DNA from: Escherichia phage Sa157lw
Sequence record: OK322699.1
DNA length: 64,000 bases
Direction: 5' to 3' (one strand)
Program-made: the position numbers and the translations under genes
Part shown: piece after piece, positions 2,214 through 39,517 of the stretch
How the letters are laid out: each line of letters starts with the position of its first letter
Numbering within the stretch: the stretch's first letter is position 1
The notes under the pieces: model-generated
Told to the model about the DNA's origin: nothing
The model's input: the letters and a program-made list of their open reading frames with translations, nothing else
Databases searched by the model: none

Positions 2214-3797
2214 TTACTTGTACAGACCGTCAACGTCAATAGATTTATGTTGGCGGTTGTATTCCGTGGTGTAGTCATCCAACACGAGATATTCACAGCA
2301 GCGGATTTTACTAGAACCGTAATCATCAGTGATAGACACGATGTCTTTCGGGTTCAGCTTACAACGCACAACCCGCTGGCCCAGGCTACCGAAACATTGT
2401 TTCAGATACGCCAGAGAACAAACGTGAAGACCATAGGAGCACAGGTCTTTGTTGTTATCGTTCACGAATGAGCGAGCCATCCGGACGATAGTGCCAGGTG
2501 CGTTACTGACTTTACCTGTGCGCTTATCCATATAATTTCCGCGAACGGATTTGTATAGAATAATGTCGCCGTCTTCATGAATCTCAATGTCTGAGTATGC
2601 CATGAATTCATAGATCCGACCAGACTGAACCAGCGCGGCGCTCGGGTTTTGGAACATCTTGTCAAGGAAACGGCCCAAGCGTTCCAAGTTCGGATAATCG
2701 CCTTTTAATGCCAAAGCCAAAATGCGTTTGGCAACGGAAGTTCCGGTGATATCATAGCCACCCCAGCGAACACGGTTGTCTGAAAGATCAACCATGCCTG
2801 TAGTGAATTGTTTGATGGCTTCACGCGGTTTCATCAGAGTGTAAGCTGTTTTGACGTCACGATTTTTAATCGCTTCAACAATACGGTCATACGCCTGGTG
2901 GCTCGTTGTGATCGTTTCCGGTTTACCATCGACCACAATCACGATACTTTCCGGCAAAATCATGATCTGGTGTTCGTTCAGGAACACAGACAGTTCTTTT
3001 TCATTAAATGAATTCTGAGTTTGCTTGTCGCCTGTTTCTTCAACAACTGCAACCGTCTTGACCACGAATAATACGGATGACAATGCCAGACGAAGTGTAC
3101 GGCCTAAAATTGCATCAAAGTAACCCACGCGCCGACGGGCATCAAGGGAACCGCGCATCGGATATGTTTCACCGTCATGCTGTACGCTGATTTTCACACC
3201 ATCATTGACTTTAACCACGCCATCAACCAATGCAGTAGCCAGTTCTGCTAACGGCGAAATATTTTCTTCATTGAAGCGGCTTGACCGAGTTTCTAACGGT
3301 TTCAGTTCTTCGCTTCTGAAAAGTTTGGCCTGAATAGCAGCAGAGCTATCATAACGCATACAGATAAACACTGTTTGGTTTTCCAGGAAACGGCCAACAT
3401 ACCATTCTTCGCCTTCAGAATCGACAGACACCGAACCTTCCAGAACTTCATAGGTGTCGGGGATTTTGCCTTCTTCAGTCAATTCTTTAATTGGCGAAAT
3501 CACGACCACGTTATTAGATTCTTTGATGATACGAACCATCAGGGCACGGGCAATTGTTTTGGCACTGACACCATAAACTGATGCCAGAGAAGAATTGCTT
3601 TCACCTTTGCTGCTCTTGGTTTGTATTTCTTGAATCTGTTCAGTGGTCAGAGACTTAATCGAAGCCGGATCCACTCCCAGTTCTTTATCCGACACGCGTT
3701 GTATCATTGAGCGCGGTACGCCCAATTCACTGGCTATTGAACTTTGACTTCTGTTCTCATTCAACAGCTTGAGAATACGTTTTTCTATAGCATTCAT
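2214..3797 (-). CDS. rIIB: rIIB-like protein
   Basis: C-terminal stretch (...SYGLHVCSLAYLKQCFGSLGQRVVRCKLNPKDIVSI...) aligns by eye with T4 RIIB (...SRGLHVCSKSYIRHFGSSTSRVVKVKVHPRDVVSI...); N-terminal HTH-like segment; sits directly downstream of the rIIA homologue as in T4. Confidence 0.75.
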   Translation of the reverse strand: MNAIEKRILKLLNENRSQSSIASELGVPRSMIQRVSDKELGVDPASIKSLTTEQIQEIQTKSSKGESNSSLASVYGVSAKTIARALMVRIIKESNNVVVISPIKELTEEGKIPDTYEVLEGSVSVDSEGEEWYVGRFLENQTVFICMRYDSSAAIQAKLFRSEELKPLETRSSRFNEENISPLAELATALVDGVVKVNDGVKISVQHDGETYPMRGSLDARRRVGYFDAILGRTLRLALSSVLFVVKTVAVVEETGDKQTQNSFNEKELSVFLNEHQIMILPESIVIVVDGKPETITTSHQAYDRIVEAIKNRDVKTAYTLMKPREAIKQFTTGMVDLSDNRVRWGGYDITGTSVAKRILALALKGDYPNLERLGRFLDKMFQNPSAALVQSGRIYEFMAYSDIEIHEDGDIILYKSVRGNYMDKRTGKVSNAPGTIVRMARSFVNDNNKDLCSYGLHVCSLAYLKQCFGSLGQRVVRCKLNPKDIVSITDDYGSSKIRCCEYLVLDDYTTEYNRQHKSIDVDGLYK

Positions 3798-3829
3798 CTT
3801 GTAGTTCTCACTATGGGGTAATGGGGCTA

Positions 3830-6571
3830 TTATGCCCCGAGAATACGTTTTGAAATAGCCTTCACAAATCTAGTGGCATCTTCAATCGCATTATGCGCCG
3901 TTGGCTGATATTTTGACATCATGAATTTCACCAAACGATGACATTCAACTCGGTATCGGTTTTTGGCCTTTTGCTTTTGAGATATAGTGCTAGTGACCTT
4001 TATCTCATCAAATCCTTCAGCAGTTAATTTTTCATTCAATAAATCAACAACTTGAGTTAACTGGTTACAGGCGCGGAAAAATCTCGTAGTTGAGAAAGGC
4101 ATTTCTATACGATAATGTAATTCCTCAACAGCCTTGCGGAAATAACCGTACCCCGATCCAGACGGGTTTCGTTTGGCCAGCATACGAACAACCTTCCATT
4201 CTTCTTCAGTGATTTGTTGTTTCGCATAACCGATGATTGCTTTTGCCCTGTGTTGATGATGAGCATAGCCATCCGTAACTTCTCCATGGGAATCAATCAA
4301 CAGCTTGGCACCATAATCAATGCGATGAGACATGATGTTTATGCCCTTGCGAAGTTTCAGGAGTTTCTTAGATTCAAGCGCCTGAAATTCATCTTTATAA
4401 TGCTCAAGCAACATATCAAACACTGCGTCAATGGGGATGAATACTTCTGGGAATTTCTTCATCATCGGAACAGATTTACGACGCGCAAGAACGATTGTTG
4501 GATGCGCTCCCAGCAAATCAAACATGTTTTCGTTTCCATTCTCGCCGAACTTCGTTCTTTCCATCGCTTCACGCAAATGTCCAGCCGTGGATTGTCGTAA
4601 GGTATTACCATGAATTTTATGGATACCTTCTCGGCCAGATACTTCGATATATACGATCTTTTTGCCTGAATCAATAATATCTGAAACGGTTTTTCCATCC
4701 AATTCATAAACGCTGTCGAAGTTAAATGAATTGTAATGGAAACTAAACATCCCAGGATCTTTTTCAACGGTCGGGCGAACATATTCCATTTCATGCATGA
4801 AATAAACTTCATCCGGATTGAATAAATCGCCAAAAACCTCGATCAGTTTATCGGCAAAGACCAGGTAGTCCGGTGTTGTTTCTTGTACACCGATCCATGA
4901 TTCAAAATAAGACTTCAATTCCTCATGGTTGGTGAATGATTCTTTATGTGCCGCCAGCTGATTCCGATTACTGAAATAATTTTCATTCGGCTTGACGACG
5001 ATAACGACATTGAAGTTATTGCGTGCTGTTTGTATCTTCAGGTTTCGAGCACGATTCGAGTTATCAATAATAACAGCAATTTTTGATTTAGATTTCAACC
5101 AATTTCCGACAGAGTTCACATAAATGCTGTCGTGTACTACACCGTCGTCGTGTACTTCAATTTCGTAAGGACTACCAATAGACCGGAAAGGTGCATCCAC
5201 AGAGTAATCGCGCACGACGTCCGGCGCTCCGATATAACGGAACGTGCCTTTGTAGAAACGGTTATCTGCAGGAAATTCTCGCTCCACTAATTTACGGAAA
5301 CCACTACCGAACATATCGGTCAATTGAGCCTTCTTCATATAAAGCATAAGAGGACCCATAGATTCGGCCTGGCGAAGTTCATACATCTTCGCCTGCATAA
5401 TATTGTCAGCCACATATTTGAACACTCGGTTCAGGCTTTCACGGGTGAACTCGTCATATGACAAGTCTTCACGTGATGGAGGAACATTCAATTCTCCAAG
5501 TTCAAAGAATGTATAGGAACTCGGGAATTTCTCCAGCACCGAACGTATTTCAGAATCCAATTGCTCAAGATCTATCGGATAAGAAACCCCGCCCATAACG
5601 GCATAGTGGGTATTATCAGAATCAGACTTCGGCTGAATATACGTGTTGCCCACACGGTTTTCAAAATTGATGTCCTGCCAGCGGAAAGAATAACTGGCAT
5701 TTTCAACCTTCGGGCGCATTGATGGGCGCATAACTCGACCCAGACGGACCAGTTCTTGTTCAAATGCGGTAAATCGCTGATTCTTTACAGGCACTTTAAC
5801 AGTCAGACCATTGAACTCATCAGTGTCTTCTGGTTTCGGATCACGGGTATCCAAATCCTTGGTGATCAGGTCCACAGTAGGAATCCTGTCCGCATTCAGA
5901 TACATAAGAAAGCGATACAGTTTACCTTCATAACGACTTTCTACAGTAAATGAGTCCGACACTGCAAATGGGGATTTAGAACCCAGCCCGAACGCGCCGA
6001 TCTGCCCGTCGTCGTCCTCTTTGGTGCTGTGGAAGAGTGTGGTGTACAAACCAGGTCCACGGATGATCTCGCCATCCTCAGCGCGGAATACCAACACCCC
6101 ATTGTAATAACCAGGCGTCCCAATAACAGCAGTGCTGTCAGGGATTTCATCTTCCTTCACAACAATGTTGCCTTCGACAAGCACTTCATCTTCCCGCGCT
6201 GCGATAGGTTCCCCGATAATCATTTCTAACGGAAGGCCAATCCCATAATCCTTGATTTCCAACCATGGTTCCATAACATCAGGTAAATGGACCACAACGG
6301 GCGTCCCTTTGGGAGCAAGATGCTTGCTGTATCTTTGGGGCATAGGGGTAAGAGGGGCATAATGGGACGGCAACCAACGCTGTTGGCGATCACGCATATT
6401 ATGCGAGTCTATACCGTTACATAACGTCTCACGCAAAGATGCGGCCTCTTTATATTTGTAGAGACTTGAAAATAATGTTTCAAATAATTTATCCGTCATC
6501 TTGACATTAAATGTCTGTCCGACGATAGTGGAAGAAGAGCGCACGAAATGCTCAGACTTGCGCATTTTCAT
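3830..6571 (-). CDS. rIIA: rIIA-like protein (GHKL ATPase-like N-terminal region)
   Basis: Motifs GAFGLGSKSPF, VMGGVSYPID and NVPPSREDLSYDEF match T4 RIIA (GGFGLGSKSPF, IYGGIVYPID, IAPSREALSLDD). Confidence 0.8.
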   Translation of the reverse strand: MKMRKSEHFVRSSSTIVGQTFNVKMTDKLFETLFSSLYKYKEAASLRETLCNGIDSHNMRDRQQRWLPSHYAPLTPMPQRYSKHLAPKGTPVVVHLPDVMEPWLEIKDYGIGLPLEMIIGEPIAAREDEVLVEGNIVVKEDEIPDSTAVIGTPGYYNGVLVFRAEDGEIIRGPGLYTTLFHSTKEDDDGQIGAFGLGSKSPFAVSDSFTVESRYEGKLYRFLMYLNADRIPTVDLITKDLDTRDPKPEDTDEFNGLTVKVPVKNQRFTAFEQELVRLGRVMRPSMRPKVENASYSFRWQDINFENRVGNTYIQPKSDSDNTHYAVMGGVSYPIDLEQLDSEIRSVLEKFPSSYTFFELGELNVPPSREDLSYDEFTRESLNRVFKYVADNIMQAKMYELRQAESMGPLMLYMKKAQLTDMFGSGFRKLVEREFPADNRFYKGTFRYIGAPDVVRDYSVDAPFRSIGSPYEIEVHDDGVVHDSIYVNSVGNWLKSKSKIAVIIDNSNRARNLKIQTARNNFNVVIVVKPNENYFSNRNQLAAHKESFTNHEELKSYFESWIGVQETTPDYLVFADKLIEVFGDLFNPDEVYFMHEMEYVRPTVEKDPGMFSFHYNSFNFDSVYELDGKTVSDIIDSGKKIVYIEVSGREGIHKIHGNTLRQSTAGHLREAMERTKFGENGNENMFDLLGAHPTIVLARRKSVPMMKKFPEVFIPIDAVFDMLLEHYKDEFQALESKKLLKLRKGINIMSHRIDYGAKLLIDSHGEVTDGYAHHQHRAKAIIGYAKQQITEEEWKVVRMLAKRNPSGSGYGYFRKAVEELHYRIEMPFSTTRFFRACNQLTQVVDLLNEKLTAEGFDEIKVTSTISQKQKAKNRYRVECHRLVKFMMSKYQPTAHNAIEDATRFVKAISKRILGA

Positions 6572-11034: not shown

Positions 11035-11045
11035 GATGTATTTCC

Positions 11046-11090
11046 TTGTAAAAGAAAGGGGAACGGGCTAATAATAACCCATTCCCCTTT
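11046..11090 (-). terminator. intrinsic terminator (ggggaacggg / cccattcccc hairpin)
   Basis: About 10-bp stem with one mismatch, then T-run on the minus strand; shares flanking motif with 8222-8276. Confidence 0.4.
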
Positions 11091-11115
11091 ATTGAAGAAC
11101 GCAATCGCAGTCAGA

Positions 11116-11321: not shown

Positions 11322-12557
11322 TCATCGTTTCAACAAAGACATGAGGTTTACACTGGTCGACTTCGGATTGTCCTCTATCTTCCGGACGGGCATTTTCAGA
11401 TTAGTGTAAACCTCAGATGGTTCCCAACGCGTACCCTGCTGCAGGTGCCATATATGTAGAGGAACACCTGTCTCAAAGAACACAGGCATCTTCCACTTCT
11501 GGACGCCAGGAACGTGCCCTGCAGGAGCTTTTTCGCATAACAGGGTATCTGGTAGCCAGAGGGAACGGGCTTCCCATAATGCCTTACAGGAGTACTCAGG
11601 CCAGATGCGTTCCATGTAGTCGATCTCATCCCAAGTACGCTCGGCATCCCACCCGATGTAACGAGTGTTTTTCAGACGGAAGAATTTCTTAAGCCAACAA
11701 GCACCGGAAGTCTCAAAGTTCAAACGATTGATGAACGTGATGTGACCAAACTCGGCGACACAATCTTTGAATGCCTGTTCAAGATCAGCCTCAAGGATGT
11801 CGCATTCTTCATCGGTGATAGGACAGCCGTTGATCTTTTTCTTTCCGTGCTTGGTCACCCAGTCGTCACGGTTTGACAAGAATGCCGCGCCGTTGCGGTT
11901 GGACTCACTACCATCACGGTCACGCAACATGAACCCAGGGACGTCGATCTGATACATGTTGCCGAATACCATGTTCAGGGCTTCCAGGAAGTTCCAGGCG
12001 CTCAGGCGACCGAAGTATTTCCACCCCATAGCCGTGTCCCATAGCTTAACGAATTGATCACTTTGCAGTTTAGTCTCCAACAACGGACGGAAAGCATCCA
12101 TCTGAGTACGACCAGCCAGCCAATCAATGTAGGACTGAACACACGGGATCATCTTCGATTTGCGATAGCGGCAATCAGTATCGAATCGCATACGCTCGAA
12201 GTTCAGGTTATACCAATCACAGAATCGCTTGAACTCTTGTGGTGACTGAGGCGGTACAGGAAACTCACTATAAATCGTCCATGGGCCAATCCCATTATAA
12301 CAACAGCCCCAAAGGAACGCCATCCAGATCTTGCGCTCGATCTTCTCAAGCTGCGTAATGCCTTCAGTGACTTCAATCGCATAATCCATCAGACGAACTT
12401 GTTGGTTGTGTTCTTCCGTATACGACAGCGCCTCCACCCATGCTTTGAGCAGATACATCCGATTCTCTGGCTTACGATAATCGATTGACAAATCAATTGG
12501 GTACTTCCATTCAGCCGGAGGCGTATAACCTGTCGGCATTTTAGATAGATGCGTCAT
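11322..12557 (-). CDS. hypothetical enzyme-sized protein (411 aa); possible DNA-modification or nucleotide-metabolism role
   Basis: Long intact ORF near a P-loop kinase and a HAD hydrolase; no motif recognised with confidence. Confidence 0.45.
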   Translation of the reverse strand: MTHLSKMPTGYTPPAEWKYPIDLSIDYRKPENRMYLLKAWVEALSYTEEHNQQVRLMDYAIEVTEGITQLEKIERKIWMAFLWGCCYNGIGPWTIYSEFPVPPQSPQEFKRFCDWYNLNFERMRFDTDCRYRKSKMIPCVQSYIDWLAGRTQMDAFRPLLETKLQSDQFVKLWDTAMGWKYFGRLSAWNFLEALNMVFGNMYQIDVPGFMLRDRDGSESNRNGAAFLSNRDDWVTKHGKKKINGCPITDEECDILEADLEQAFKDCVAEFGHITFINRLNFETSGACWLKKFFRLKNTRYIGWDAERTWDEIDYMERIWPEYSCKALWEARSLWLPDTLLCEKAPAGHVPGVQKWKMPVFFETGVPLHIWHLQQGTRWEPSEVYTNLKMPVRKIEDNPKSTSVNLMSLLKR

Positions 12558-25285: not shown

Positions 25286-25508
25286 ATGTTAAACCATCGT
25301 GGGGATGGAAAGACTACTCACAGCAATTTCTGATAATGGGCGTTGGGAGAGTGCGTCGGGAATCGAACCCGAAATCGTCAGGACGCTGAAAGCTATTTGC
25401 ATTTCACTTGCATATCCTGCGACTTTCTTAACTTCCTTAACCCCAGATTGTTATGAAGTCAGCATGCACACCTTCTTCATCTTCAGGAAGTCACACTCAT
25501 TATTCTGA

Positions 25509-25594
25509 TTGCTTCAACTGGATTCGAACCAGTGACCTCAGGCACCTTGTTCTCTCGAAACTTTCCTGCGCTCTACCACTCGAGCTATGAAGCA
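25509..25594 (-). tRNA. tRNA-like element (canonical acceptor, D-arm and T-arm; anticodon arm does not fold canonically)
   Basis: Acceptor tgcttca/tgaagca, D-arm gctc-gagtggta-gagc and T-arm actgg-ttcgaat-ccagt are textbook, but the 36 nt between cannot be folded by eye. Confidence 0.4.
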
Positions 25595-25597
25595 ATT

Positions 25598-25686
25598 TGG
25601 CGGAAGGTGAAGGATTCGAACCTTCGGGGGCTAAAAGCCCCACTCGATTAGCAGTCGAGTCCCTTAAACCTCTCGGGCAACCTTCC
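25598..25686 (-). tRNA. tRNA-Ser (GCU), type II with long variable arm, CCA encoded
   Basis: Hand fold: acceptor ggaaggt/accttcc, 3-bp D-stem, anticodon arm ctcga-cuGCUaa-tcgag, variable hairpin gggc-tttt-agccc, T-arm gaagg-ttcgaat-ccttc. Confidence 0.8.
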
Positions 25687-25690
25687 AATT

Positions 25691-25774
25691 TGGAGCGGGA
25701 GAACAGGATTCGAACCTGTCCAGTGATCGTCGCCGATGATCAGTCGGCTACTGGCCAACCCCTATGGCTCCCGC
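25691..25774 (-). tRNA. tRNA-like element with GAU anticodon-like loop (possible Ile), non-canonical D region, CCA encoded
   Basis: Perfect acceptor gcgggag/ctcccgc, T-arm acagg-ttcgaat-cctgt, hairpin gccga-cuGAUca-tcggc; extra nucleotide before the 3' acceptor strand and no clean D-arm. Confidence 0.4.
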
Positions 25775-26249: not shown

Positions 26250-26325
26250 TGGCGACGATGGCAGGACTTGAACCTGCGACATACGATTTAACAGACCGCC
26301 GTTCTACCGACTGAACTACATCGTC
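26250..26325 (-). tRNA. tRNA-Asn (GUU), CCA encoded
   Basis: Hand fold: acceptor gacgatg/catcgtc, D-arm gttc-agtcggta-gaac, anticodon arm gcggt-cuGUUaa-atcgt, T-arm gcagg-ttcaagt-cctgc. Confidence 0.85.
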
Positions 26326-26326
26326 A

Positions 26327-26527
26327 TTATCCGTGCTTGTTTGCTTCAATTGCCCTTAATTGGGCATCAGCGTCAGCTTTGGTGTCATGTGTCCCAAGAA
26401 CCTTCGTCTTGGTGTGGTCAAGGACAACCCACTTGTCGCCTCGCTTTTCAACAAACTCAACAATCTCTTTGTTGTCAGTAGAGAGGCCATCCCACTCAGC
26501 AAGAAACTCACCGAACGTTTTCATCAT
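26327..26527 (-). CDS. small hypothetical protein (67 aa) between tRNA genes
   Basis: ORF fits exactly between tRNA-Asn and tRNA-Met. Confidence 0.3.
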   Translation of the reverse strand: MMKTFGEFLAEWDGLSTDNKEIVEFVEKRGDKWVVLDHTKTKVLGTHDTKADADAQLRAIEANKHG

Positions 26528-26644
26528 ACTCACCAATCGTTTATTGAACAACTGGTTTATTTAGGTGCTCCCGAGGCGGTATTTTAATCCCGCGATCCCA
26601 TCTCGCCTGTCGTAGACCGGAGCATGCTGACAGTCCAACATATT

Positions 26645-26720
26645 TGGTGACCCTGGCTGGACTTGAACCAGCGACCAATCGATTATGAGTCGACTGCTCT
26701 AACCACTGAGCTACGGGGCC
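26645..26720 (-). tRNA. tRNA-Met (CAU; elongator-type or lysidine Ile2), CCA encoded
   Basis: Hand fold: acceptor ggccccg/cagggtc (one C-A mismatch), D-arm gctc-agtggtta-gagc, anticodon arm gtcga-cuCAUaa-tcgat, T-arm gctgg-ttcaagt-ccagc. Confidence 0.75.
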
Positions 26721-26828
26721 AAAATTGGCGGGGTCTGAGGCTTTTCACCTCACCTGCTGGATTGGCCTCCAGCTGTTCTCTCTGGGGACTCGCTGTCCGG
26801 ACAGCTATCCCTTAAACTATCGCCCCTT

Positions 26829-26943
26829 AATTCATATTGCTGTGGGTAATACCAAAGCGGAGGTTTGGAATCTCTCGCCCTATAGCGACCTTTAAACCGT
26901 TTGATCAGTCCGATCCAAAGGACTACCCACAGCAATATGAATT
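26829..26943. repeat. perfect 20-bp inverted repeat (26829-26848 / 26924-26943) around a 75-nt spacer
   Basis: aattcatattgctgtgggta is the exact reverse complement of tacccacagcaatatgaatt. Confidence 0.9.
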
Positions 26944-27150
26944 TGTTGTGTCCAATCAAGGACTGTCAACCTTTTATCCCGTTTGTGCATGATCAGTTCA
27001 TGCAGGCCTCTTTGTGCGCCTCACAGCAACGCGCTTCTGTAGGTCATTGACTTGCACCGTAGTCTCACCACAGGCGTTTATTTTTCCAGGGCTTTCCACT
27101 TACAAGTCTTAACCAGATCGGGATACGGGCTTGTAAGATCAGATTGGACA

Positions 27151-27228
27151 CAACTTTGATGGCTCTAGGACTAAAGATCCCGCGTCACCCATAGACTTGG
27201 TTTATAAAATCTAGAGCCATCAAAGTTG
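27151..27228. repeat. perfect 18-bp inverted repeat (27151-27168 / 27211-27228) around a 42-nt spacer
   Basis: caactttgatggctctag vs ctagagccatcaaagttg. Confidence 0.9.
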
Positions 27229-27608
27229 CAACCAATGTCGCAACTCGCACTTCAGCGTCTTCGTCTCGCTTCAGCACTTGTCCTCTACGCTCGGACCAAA
27301 CGAGGCTGGCCGACAGAAACATGACACCACTCATCACTAGAGCGAGGATGTGGTTGATAGCCACGATGTTACATCTCTGTCGCAGAGTGATCACACTTGT
27401 CAGGATGATCACTGTTTTGCGAACTTGAAAATACTGCGCCTGTCTCGGGTTTCCCCTTAGTTCGGCCTCTCATTGTTCGTCTAGTCAGGGAGCTACCCTT
27501 GATGACCAGCTTATTTTGAGATCTTCGCCAGCACCCACTAGTGTCTAGAATATGTAGGTGTCGAGGTCTGCAAGGCATTGCCCTATTTCATACAACGCTC
27601 TCTCAAGT

Positions 27609-27744
27609 ACGCAAATCGAAGTTCTCTGGGCTTAACAGGTTCGACCCAACATGTTGTATATCGCCTAACTTGCTCATGGGACGGACACATCTGTGTACAG
27701 ACCTTGAGGGTTAAAAGATATACCCAAAGAACTTCGATTTGCGT
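27609..27744. repeat. perfect 17-bp inverted repeat (27609-27625 / 27728-27744) around a 102-nt spacer
   Basis: acgcaaatcgaagttct vs agaacttcgatttgcgt. Confidence 0.85.
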
Positions 27745-27889: not shown

Positions 27890-28022
27890 CACATCTTTGA
27901 GGGCACTCAGTGTACAACAGGCTCCGATATTTCATAGGGCATTACTGCCTCGGATTTAAGTTGCCTTTCTCCTGAAACTCCATGCAGTCTCGCGTCTGAC
28001 GCGGAATGCCCTCAAAGATGTG
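27890..28022. repeat. perfect 16-bp inverted repeat (27890-27905 / 28007-28022) around a 101-nt spacer
   Basis: cacatctttgagggca vs tgccctcaaagatgtg; right arm ends at the tgg of the adjacent tRNA-like 3' module. Confidence 0.85.
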
Positions 28023-28146
28023 GAGCCGTTTTAGGGAGTCGAACCCAAATGCTTGGCCAGCGCTGACCTTACATCCCATCTGACTTAGGCAACCCACCTC
28101 TGCTTACTCAGGAGCTTATCCCCTTTGGACAGTCAGATATAACGGC
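28021..28146 (-). ncRNA. tRNA-like 3' module (CCA, acceptor, T-arm) whose only matching 5' acceptor strand is ~120 nt away
   Basis: tgg-a-gccgttt-taggg-agtcgaa-cccaa at 28021-28048; complementary aacggc only at 28141-28146. Confidence 0.25.
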
Positions 28147-28148
28147 TT

Positions 28149-28217
28149 TGGGATTGGAGGAAGGACTCGAACCTTCTCATGTACGCTCCTGATTTCTCAG
28201 AAGTAGCCTGCTCCCAT
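28149..28217 (-). tRNA. short tRNA-like element (about 69 nt with CCA), anticodon arm atypical
   Basis: CCA-discriminator-acceptor attggag, T-arm gaagg-actcgaa-ccttc, 5' strand atgggag (one mismatch); central ctga-gaaa-tcag hairpin has a 4-nt loop. Confidence 0.3.
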
Positions 28218-28434
28218 CGACCTATTAAGTACACGCTCCGCTCATTGTTCGGCGGGAGCTTATTAATCACACCCTCCCGCCTATTGTTAGTGCGCCGAAT
28301 TTTGTTATGAGGAATCGGAAGACCTCACTGGTGTATGGCTATTAAGCTACTGCCAGGAACGTGTTATCATTAGCGATTATTTTTGTGGTCAGTTTCTAAA
28401 AACCCGCAAAGTCACGCACAACGAAAACGAAAAC

Positions 28435-28499
28435 CTGTTTGAGTCCTAAACCTACCTGTCTTGGTCTCACATCGCTATGAGTGGCCAGGACTCAAACAG
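28435..28499. repeat. perfect 13-bp inverted repeat (28435-28447 / 28487-28499) around a 39-nt spacer
   Basis: ctgtttgagtcct vs aggactcaaacag. Confidence 0.8.
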
Positions 28500-29289
28500 C
28501 TTGCCGTTCAGTGAGTTAACTATACTTTGTAACCCGTTATTGATAAAACCTTTTATTTTTGTTGACGAGGGTGTGGAATCGAACCACACTTCTGAGCGCT
28601 GCCCCGTGTCACCAATGCACCACCTCACCATCGATTTGCCGGAACTTACGCATCCGGCCTCGCCTGTTGGTGATCCTTCGAATCCGGGAAGATTAGTAGG
28701 AACTATGAATCAAGTTAATTCGACCAACAGGAATCCTCGTGTTGCCCTTTGACGCAACATTATGAACCCTCTATGAAGACTCATAATGTTGTCGGCGTGA
28801 TGGAGATTAGCGCCCCCGACCTCCCCTTATATGTTGGTGTCGACTTGCCAACGGGGTGCTCTCATTCTTCTGAGCTAATCACGCTACAACAGGGAGTTTC
28901 GTTCTCCGACGGTCAAGTGCGTCCACTGACACCAGCGAGGTGGATGTGACGCCTCTATTCACACAAGCCCCAGAGACTAGGGGTTCACTGTTTTCGGTTT
29001 CAAGCCTACTCACACTGTGCTGTTTCCCTCATGTTTGATACTTTACTGCAAGCCAGCCAATTTGAAAAATCCTCTCCCCTTTGAATTACACTGCCCACAG
29101 CAGTGCGGACGAACCTTCATTCAAAACCGGATGCGCCGAAATGGGCGACTGTGTACCGGACTGATCAGGTCGACCCAGGAGAGAGCAGGTAATCCCGATC
29201 AGGAGGATGAGGAGTAACATCATGTAAAACATAGTGTTCCCTCCCTTCCATGCAACTAACTTTACCGCATTTATTTATTGAATAAAGCG

Positions 29290-34037: not shown

Positions 34038-34044
34038 CTAAATA
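34038..34044 (+). promoter_or_regulatory. CTAAATA late-promoter-like motif upstream of first tailspike gene
   Basis: The heptamer recurs 20-45 nt upstream of at least eight structural-gene starts; resembles T4 late promoter TATAAATA. Confidence 0.3.
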
Positions 34045-34077
34045 CCCCTAGATGACATGAATACATTTAGGGGTATT
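34041..34077 (+). repeat. 10-bp-stem hairpin (aataccccta / taggggtatt) at gene junction before first tailspike
   Basis: Perfect complement; variant of the element before the second and third tailspike genes. Confidence 0.6.
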
Positions 34078-37265: not shown

Positions 37266-37272
37266 CTAAATA
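37266..37272 (+). promoter_or_regulatory. CTAAATA late-promoter-like motif
   Basis: Same heptamer, 34 nt upstream of ATG 37306. Confidence 0.3.
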
Positions 37273-37302
37273 CCCCATATTGGACATCCTTTATGGGGTA
37301 TT
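37269..37302 (+). repeat. 10-bp-stem hairpin (aataccccat / atggggtatt) immediately before tailspike 2 start
   Basis: Identical stem to the element at 39479-39512. Confidence 0.65.
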
Positions 37303-39475: not shown

Positions 39476-39482
39476 CTAAATA
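39476..39482 (+). promoter_or_regulatory. CTAAATA late-promoter-like motif
   Basis: Same heptamer, 36 nt upstream of ATG 39518. Confidence 0.3.
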
Positions 39483-39512
39483 CCCCATATTGGCAAATCC
39501 TTATGGGGTATT
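39479..39512 (+). repeat. 10-bp-stem hairpin (aataccccat / atggggtatt) immediately before tailspike 3 start
   Basis: Same element as 37269-37302 with a different loop. Confidence 0.65.
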
Positions 39513-39517
39513 TTCAA

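Follow-up and report, generated by a model that had tools for sequence, protein, structure and literature searches.

We asked what a perfect inverted repeat at positions 27151-27228 of the genome of Escherichia phage Sa157lw stands for: an element that acts in the DNA, or the imprint of a structure in a transcript. The analysis covered a 64,000-nt stretch of this genome (sequence record OK322699.1; hereafter the window). The + strand arms, caactttgatggctctag (27151-27168) and ctagagccatcaaagttg (27211-27228), are perfectly complementary over 18 bp around a 42-nt spacer, as the first-pass annotation had claimed, and a repeat finder lengthened them to 26 nt at 88% (27143-27168 / 27211-27236). 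Eight perfect inverted repeats of at least 12 bp (loops of 3-130 nt) were found in the window, five of them inside 26.8-28.5 kb. By comparison, 20 dinucleotide-preserving shuffles of the window yielded 0-3 such repeats each, with a longest stem of 15 bp; the repeat and its local class are therefore real and far beyond chance. Folded as RNA, the minus strand of the repeat reached -44.4 kcal/mol (z = -6.1 versus shuffles).

The repeat had also been described as one of a class whose members differ in arm sequence, and both descriptions proved sound. Its four siblings, all on the minus strand, are I6 (26829-26943; a 20-22 bp stem with a 71-75 nt interior, 5 nt downstream in RNA sense of D2, the structured RNA described below), I4 (27609-27744; 19-23 bp stem), I5 (27890-28022; a 17-19 bp helix by MFE count and a 24-nt, 88% complementary inverted repeat) and I7 (28426-28508; 21-25 bp stem, preserved, with compensatory changes, out to Serratia phage phiMAM1). 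Across the five hairpins, helix lengths are 17-25 bp. No arm copied another in a self-comparison, and the search for paralogy among the hairpins and their flanking blocks returned T-arm motifs only. A 9/10 match between arms of the 27151-27228 and 27890-28022 hairpins (CTTTGATGGC / CTTTGAGGGC) is absent in relatives and may be coincidental. Two further inverted repeats lie outside the tRNA region, at 11040-11105 (31 nt, 74% complementary, 4-nt loop) and 11342-11415 (perfect over 13 bp, 48-nt loop).

Genomic setting of the hairpin

The phage belongs to the genus Kuttervirus (Ackermannviridae, Vi01/CBA120 type). The 5-kb stretch around the hairpin is 98% identical to that of Salmonella phage vB_Hercules_SET (Kuttervirus; hereafter Hercules) and has matches in 369 phage records. 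From about 25.3 to 29.3 kb, some 4 kb contain no long or conserved ORFs; hairpins and phage tRNA genes lie inside, and all tRNA genes of the window are on the minus strand. An early-type promoter, TTCAAT-N14-TATAAT (29922-29897, minus strand), is located 38 nt upstream of the first ORF that follows it (29859-29290, minus strand; 189 aa, no assigned function). This motif, which has 2 matches in the window versus 0.04 expected, was described as an early promoter of the Vi01/CBA120-type phage family (PMC7283392). At the other end, a terminator scan found only one strong minus-strand intrinsic terminator (25285-25263; a 9-bp stem with 6 G-C pairs, then a U-run), which follows the last tRNA-like module, and terminators are independently annotated at the matching place in the KWBSE43-6 and Menlow records. 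Promoter and terminator would place the hairpin inside a putative early transcription unit of 4.6 kb that is almost entirely untranslated.

The tRNA/ncRNA operon carries, on the minus strand, tRNA-Met (26645-26720), tRNA-Asn (26250-26325), tRNA-Ile (25691-25774), tRNA-Ser (25598-25686) and a tRNA-like element (25509-25594). The latter scored 48.7 bits on the Rfam tRNA model and has 22 nt in place of the anticodon loop; it corresponds to tRNA-OTHER in Hercules, the closest relative, and some other records annotate a tRNA-Tyr in that part of the cluster. Together with this element, degenerate tRNA-like modules with T-arm motifs, which ARAGORN missed, were found on the minus strand at 25343-25440, 26725-26823, 28027-28115, 28150-28245 and 28562-28640. 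Consecutive tRNAs of the operon are linked by CCA-AAUU, and these A/U-rich junctions fit the RNase E site type. The last tRNA-like module ahead of the terminator has the same position as rnaC of phage T4.

Several other features of the region were recorded. Between tRNA-Met and tRNA-Asn lies a small conserved ORF (26327-26551, minus strand; 74 aa, phrog_3684, function unassigned), whose stop codon directly precedes the 5′ end of tRNA-Asn. The sole ORF over the hairpin (27185-27412, minus strand) was rejected as a gene: S8, SP1 and phage 38 have stops or frameshifts within it, it is replaced, in part, in 3384-D8 and fGh-Ecl02, and it appears as ‘hypothetical’ in some records. A sigma-70-like promoter, TTATCA-16-TATAGT (28519-28546, minus strand), stands about 10 nt upstream of I7 and is kept in phiMAM1 as TTGTCA...TATAGT; I7 could be the 5′-terminal stem-loop of an internal transcript from this promoter. 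Around I7 (28294-28492, minus strand) and in the fetched stretch of S8 (3697-3895), sub-threshold Rfam matches to permuted tmRNA and beta-tmRNA fragments recurred (20.6 bits for permuted tmRNA near I7, against a gathering score of 47), and these matches probably arise from T-arm-like motifs. A late-promoter-like family motif, CTAAATACCC, occurs 9 times with at most one mismatch versus 2.6 expected; at several sites it lies within short inverted repeats (AATACCCC.../...GGGGTATT), namely at 34038-34077, 37266-37302 and 39476-39513.

Strand-specific conservation of the pairing

The orthologous region was taken from 14 annotated phage genomes, IMG/VR and metagenome contigs. An orthologous hairpin, with site and flanks unchanged, occurs in Kuttervirus, Agtrevirus (Ag3, EspM4VN), Taipeivirus (Menlow, KWBSE43-6) and Limestonevirus (Coodle). 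Read in RNA sense from the minus strand, it consists of a 5′ arm, CAACUUUGAUGGCUCUAG (27211-27228), which is the perfect complement of 27151-27168; of a 42-nt loop (27169-27210); and of the 3′ arm, CUAGAGCCAUCAAAGUUG (27151-27168). Two extra pairs, U-G and G-U (27229-27230 with 27149-27150, minus strand), extend the helix to 20 bp in RNA sense only, the same positions being A-C and C-A mismatches on the + strand. The loop differs between genera and holds a motif, UAUGGGUGAC, that is semi-conserved in the alignments and kept in three genera; a search of the vicinity for a complementary partner of this motif found none.

In an alignment of 20 distinct sequences from four genera (alignment A3), 98.8% of the cells of the 20-pair helix are paired. 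Compensatory double changes occur in 7 of the 20 pairs (for example U-A to G-C, G-C to A-U and U-A to A-U), and the covariation score of 0.278, compared with 0.128 in shuffles, was reached by none of 500 shuffles. When the partner was slid by 1-3 columns as a control, pairing dropped to 35-41%. The first-pass annotation had let its reading depend on conserved pairing in relatives, and 20 distinct relatives do preserve it, with compensatory changes. Across the 20-sequence alignment, the sequence of the stem's lower 10 bp is near-invariant, and the upper stem and loop vary freely among relatives. The loop ranges from about 4 nt in Limestonevirus through 42 nt in Kuttervirus and 49 nt, of other sequence, in Taipeivirus to 53 nt in Ag3, while stem length stays at 18-20 bp. 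Because pairing and stem length are kept while the loop varies, it is the stem that is under selection and not the loop; the pairing is selected and the loop is dispensable. Miltonvirus (phiMAM1) lacks the hairpin, and in Limestonevirus it is much reduced.

Single-sequence folding had suggested an outer 5-bp helix, AUUGG/CCAAU, which we discarded: it pairs poorly among relatives (76 of 97 cells), Hercules has lost it through a deletion, and the 3′ strand of this helix already belongs to the covarying closing stem of D2. The Hercules deletion removes 12 nt between two GUUGC repeats just 5′ of the hairpin (window 27231-27242; about 3730-3745 of the Hercules stretch), with loss of the short outer helix and the 20-bp stem untouched.

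The two strands differ in how well this pairing is preserved. In the minus sense, 395 of the 400 cells are paired versus 347 on the + strand, a gap to which two terminal wobble pairs, included because they pair in the minus sense, contribute about 38 cells; within the 18 core pairs, the strand bias comes from about 13 G-U cells. The variants that keep pairing by wobbles are exclusively G-U in the minus sense, and they are C-A mismatches on the + strand. The terminal wobbles are UG in 18 and GU in 19 of the 20 sequences, and one sequence has A-U in place of G-U. The whole class shares this asymmetry: among 51 distinct homologues of the five hairpins, 47 have an arm duplex that is more stable when read in the minus sense. 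Selection on the hairpin is thus strand-specific and acts in the minus sense, on a transcript or on the minus single strand, and the G-U bias together with the co-orientation with the tRNA genes points to the minus-strand transcript as the selected object.

These results bear directly on a DNA-level role, be it a cruciform, a nuclease or recombinase site, or a single-strand replication initiation signal. Such a role could draw on the perfect 18-bp palindromic pair in this genome and on the position of the hairpin cluster near a transcription-direction switch and the cumulative GC-skew minimum at 28-30 kb; however, the skew switch coincides with divergent promoters, which makes an origin unnecessary. 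With 53 of 400 cells mismatched on the + strand, against 5 of 400 in the minus sense, many relatives would be unable to form both arms of a cruciform, and a double-stranded cruciform is disfavoured because it needs both strands to pair. A 42-nt spacer likewise disfavours cruciform extrusion. The reading implied by the first-pass annotation, a site of cruciform formation or nuclease recognition, is accordingly not supported: the bias towards the minus sense is seen in the 20-sequence alignment and among the homologues alike, and the element lies within a promoter-to-terminator unit, in the orientation of the tRNAs, adjoining and continuous with a covarying RNA that bears a GNRA tetraloop (D2). 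G-T wobbles could stabilise a hairpin in minus-strand ssDNA too, and since ssDNA hairpins tolerate them, a role of the minus strand as ssDNA is compatible with the data and formally possible. As a whole, we consider a DNA-level element very improbable.

The adjoining RNA D2 and exchange among modules

Directly next to the hairpin lies D2, a structured RNA of 206 nt (26947-27152, minus strand) delineated by alifold from 30 distinct sequences. Its consensus comprises nine helices with 54 pairs, of which 99.1% of the cells are paired and 15 pairs show compensatory changes, and none of 500 shuffles equalled this. Two motifs, GGAAAGCCCUGGAAAAAUAAAC and GCAUGAACUGAUCAUGC, are invariant in D2, and one of its hairpins reads GCC-GNRA-GGC. 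The D2 closing stem (P1) pairs UGUGUCCAAUC (27152-27142) with GAUUGGACACA (26957-26947) in RNA sense, and in phiMAM1 the corresponding stem, GUACUCAACC/GGUUGAGUAC, amounts to a set of compensatory changes. D2 is the most conserved block of the region and is recognisable in phiMAM1. It was found in 272 phage records, all of them enterobacterial Ackermannviridae, and every one of the matches listed is annotated there as ‘none’ or ‘hypothetical protein’. A comparison of D2 with Rfam gave no match, the D2 motif pattern gave 0 matches in 185,579 bacterial and archaeal species genomes, and the I6-D2-I2 stretch had no match in 5,426 E. coli genomes. Scans of IMG/VR with D2 and the hairpin returned matches in 150-160-kb contigs only, and 2 of the 14 matches in the metagenome scan were true relatives. 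These comparisons make D2 a candidate for an undescribed class of phage ncRNA.

The 3′ arm of the hairpin and P1 overlap by 2 nt and leave no spacer, so the two helices could stack end to end. This arrangement raises the possibility of a single RNA of about 300 nt, hairpin plus D2, to which the hairpin belongs as an integral peripheral helix; coaxial on the D2 closing stem, it would provide a scaffold or bind a phage or host protein and would not be a cleavage signal. The near-invariant lower stem, which suggests sequence-specific recognition, and the semi-conservation of the UAUGGGUGAC loop motif in three genera would be in keeping with such a helix, and large structured RNAs beside phage tRNA genes offer a precedent in GOLLD/ROOL (PMC5737381) and the lncRNAs of phage K (PMC9241854). 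However, phages of the phiMAM1 type carry D2 without the hairpin, the loop is essentially lost in Limestonevirus, and upper stem and loop change freely. We regard the peripheral helix as possible, if unlikely.

Comparison of relatives shows that modules make up the tRNA region as a mosaic. The I6 site is an empty junction in S8 and Coodle (…AAAUUAUGGGGCG); the same point is filled by the I6 hairpin in the window and by a tRNA-Ser(UGA) gene in EspM4VN and Ag3, each with AAUU after it. In SS9/SeKF_64, an HNH endonuclease gene appears from coordinate comparison to replace the tRNA-like block and I6, and in Taipeivirus the I6 hairpin occurs in another flank context, beside tRNA-Met. In phiMAM1, the 3′ end of a tRNA-like element (GGTTCGAATCC...GCCA) lies upstream of D2, where the hairpin sits in other genera, and tRNA-Met lies downstream of D2. 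The I5 stem is kept with many compensatory changes and its interior is swapped between relatives, with 85-101 nt in the window, 36 nt in phiMAM1 and a tRNA-like module of 51-57 nt in S8-type phages. From these sequences, hairpins and tRNA or tRNA-like units look like interchangeable punctuation between RNA modules.

The S8-type I5 (3339-3427 of the fetched S8 stretch; five further loci) has a 19-bp stem around the tRNA-like module, which carries a canonical T-arm, GGCGGGTTCGAGTCCCGTGC, lacks a proper anticodon loop and gave weak Rfam matches to tRNA-Sec and mascRNA. This interior is unrelated to that of I5 in the window.

Exchange of this kind could also suit two further readings. As generic structural filler that no specific enzyme recognises, the hairpins, like the tRNA relics, would mainly keep the untranslated transcript folded, exclude Rho and insulate modules. 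The region extends over about 4 kb from promoter to terminator with no conserved ORF and is densely structured throughout, and its loops, even entire hairpins, are exchangeable, all of which would agree with filler. Filler, however, needs neither a conserved length and position nor a near-invariant lower stem, yet helix length is near two turns in five unrelated sequences and positions are orthologous across genera; we therefore judge this reading improbable. Alternatively, the hairpin could be a palindromic cassette, selfish or relic in nature and either MITE-like or tRNA-derived, that was spread by recombination, possibly with homing endonucleases, and whose pairing is kept for propagation. 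Consistent with a cassette are the insertion polymorphism of I6 at an AATT junction, its different flanks in Taipeivirus, the HNH endonuclease genes inserted in the tRNA region of SS9/SeKF_64, SeF3a and SP1, and the tRNA T-arm in the loop of one I5 variant. The 27151-27228 hairpin, however, is single-copy and is found in four genera at one orthologous site with unchanged flanks, its arms are unrepeated elsewhere in the window, no copies occur in 5,426 E. coli genomes and no transposase lies nearby, which leaves a mobile or relic cassette quite improbable.

In a broader proposal, the hairpin and D2 might form one undescribed RNA class, confined to enterobacterial Ackermannviridae, in which D2 would be a catalytic or protein-mimicking core and the hairpins of about 20 bp exchangeable cassette modules, swapped with tRNAs or their relics at CCA-AAUU and serving, for example, as decoys or substrates against host defences that target tRNA or dsRNA. 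We consider this proposal distinctly unlikely.

Hairpin function and known systems

The function that we infer for the hairpin, with moderate confidence, is RNA punctuation, whether as a site of RNase III-type processing that borders D2 on its 5′ side, as an end-protecting stem, or as both. Most likely, the hairpin marks a point of cutting or end protection rather than acting on DNA. In T7 early RNA and rRNA precursors, helices of about two turns serve as cleavage points, which is one reason to favour an RNase III-type site here. The 20-pair helix falls within the length expected of an RNase III site (about 20-22 bp, two turns), and the siblings have 17-25 bp. A second reason is that these helices come close to the idealized E. 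coli substrate of 22 bp, or two A-helical turns (PMC3867540).

According to this model, the repeat in the DNA would reflect an RNA hairpin that is made from the minus strand as part of a long, untranslated early operon, which would run from the promoter at about 29.9 kb through the 189-aa ORF and some 4 kb of hairpins, tRNA-like relics, D2 and tRNA genes to the terminator at 25.27 kb. In the RNA, 18 Watson-Crick and two G-U pairs would form a helix of 20 bp, about two A-form turns, that runs into the D2 closing stem with no unpaired base. Host RNase III would cut the precursor at this helix and thereby set the 5′ border of D2, and after cutting, or without it, the terminal stem would shield the D2 end from 5′-end-dependent RNase E and from exonucleases. 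Elsewhere in the operon, tRNAs and tRNA-like modules, through RNase P and through RNase E at the CCA-AAUU junctions, would provide the same punctuation, as might the module found at the hairpin position in phiMAM1. Transcription of the hairpin is inferred indirectly, from the promoter/terminator bracket, the co-orientation with the tRNAs and the minus-sense G-U bias, and its processing and the enzyme are likewise putative. The near-invariant lower 10 bp speak against this explanation, as RNase III does not require them, and could point to a sequence-specific partner or another constraint. A further point against it is that D2 can do without the hairpin, as its absence from phiMAM1 and its strong reduction in Limestonevirus show. 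Behind the RNase III-type site, we rank the alternatives in the order of peripheral helix, fold-keeping and Rho-shielding filler, relic or mobile cassette, and DNA-level element.

As analogues, RNase III hairpins appear closest in function and T4 rnaC/rnaD closest in context. Like the RNase III sites of T7 early RNA (R1.1-R5) and of rRNA stems, the hairpin has a helix of about two turns (20 bp here, 22 bp in the idealized substrate), lies between functional units of a long precursor, at the stem that joins the two ends of D2, and may vary in sequence provided that pairing is kept. Unlike the T7 sites, it is a predicted cleavage point, has a large loop of 42 nt and belongs to a precursor that is almost wholly non-coding. 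T7 RNase III sites also carry internal loops, whereas the stem here is perfect.

The T4 RNAs rnaC (species 1) and rnaD (species 2) are, as here, structured non-tRNA RNAs on the tRNA strand of a phage tRNA cluster; they lie beside the homing-endonuclease gene segB, and some Kutterviruses have HNH genes. T4 rnaC combines a T-arm with a long hairpin, as does the S8-type I5 variant, whereas nothing tRNA-like is present in the 27151-27228 hairpin. The T4 cluster contains two such RNAs, compared with five hairpins, D2 and several tRNA relics here. A blastn comparison of rnaC/rnaD with the region gave T-arm matches elsewhere and none at the hairpin. D2, for its part, resembles GOLLD/ROOL and the phage K lncRNAs in its phage setting beside tRNA genes (PMC5737381, PMC9241854) and in a structure supported by covariation, but differs from GOLLD/ROOL in length (about 206 nt versus 580-800 nt), hosts and phage family; the Rfam models of GOLLD/ROOL gave no match at E <= 10. 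The hairpin itself, a simple helix, is unlike GOLLD/ROOL.

With REP/BIME and MITE elements, the hairpin shares a palindrome, imperfect to perfect among such elements, that lies outside coding sequence and folds once transcribed. REP elements have a much shorter stem and loop. In contrast to these repeats, the hairpin is orthologous across genera and absent from host genomes; as a single copy with the same flanks in four genera and with no match in the E. coli genomes, it was rejected as a MITE or repeated palindrome. An intrinsic terminator was also rejected: the scan did not call one, the loop has 42 nt, and the 3′ flank in RNA sense, UGUCCAAUCUGAUC, has no U-run. The same holds for a tRNA or tRNA-like element, as neither ARAGORN nor the Rfam tRNA model gave a match at 27143-27236, where the T-arm was sought as GGTTCGAnnCC. 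Over this interval, Rfam 15 returned no family at the gathering threshold and spurious miRNA-precursor matches (29.4 versus 80 bits). Rfam was searched at gathering thresholds and at E <= 10 with the whole window, the 4.5-kb region, a 331-nt region and one relative; these stretches yielded tRNAs and sub-threshold matches to miRNA precursors and tmRNA fragments only. Our literature searches found no description of the hairpins or of this region of Ackermannviridae.

Phages of the Vi01/CBA120 type are used in the biocontrol of Salmonella and E. coli O157 and are heavily sequenced, and in the records examined about 2.5 kb beside the tRNA genes were left blank or given spurious small ORFs. Taken alone, the hairpin is a modest result, a probable processing or stability signal that was previously unannotated; D2 and the cassette-like behaviour of the region are more novel. 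The region as a whole appears to be a conserved, strand-specific and highly structured RNA operon with five two-turn hairpins, tRNA relics and a covarying RNA of 206 nt. Its description corrects the annotation, supplies concrete candidate RNA-processing sites, and provides a second system, besides T4 rnaC/rnaD, for the question of why phages keep stable non-tRNA RNAs in their tRNA clusters.
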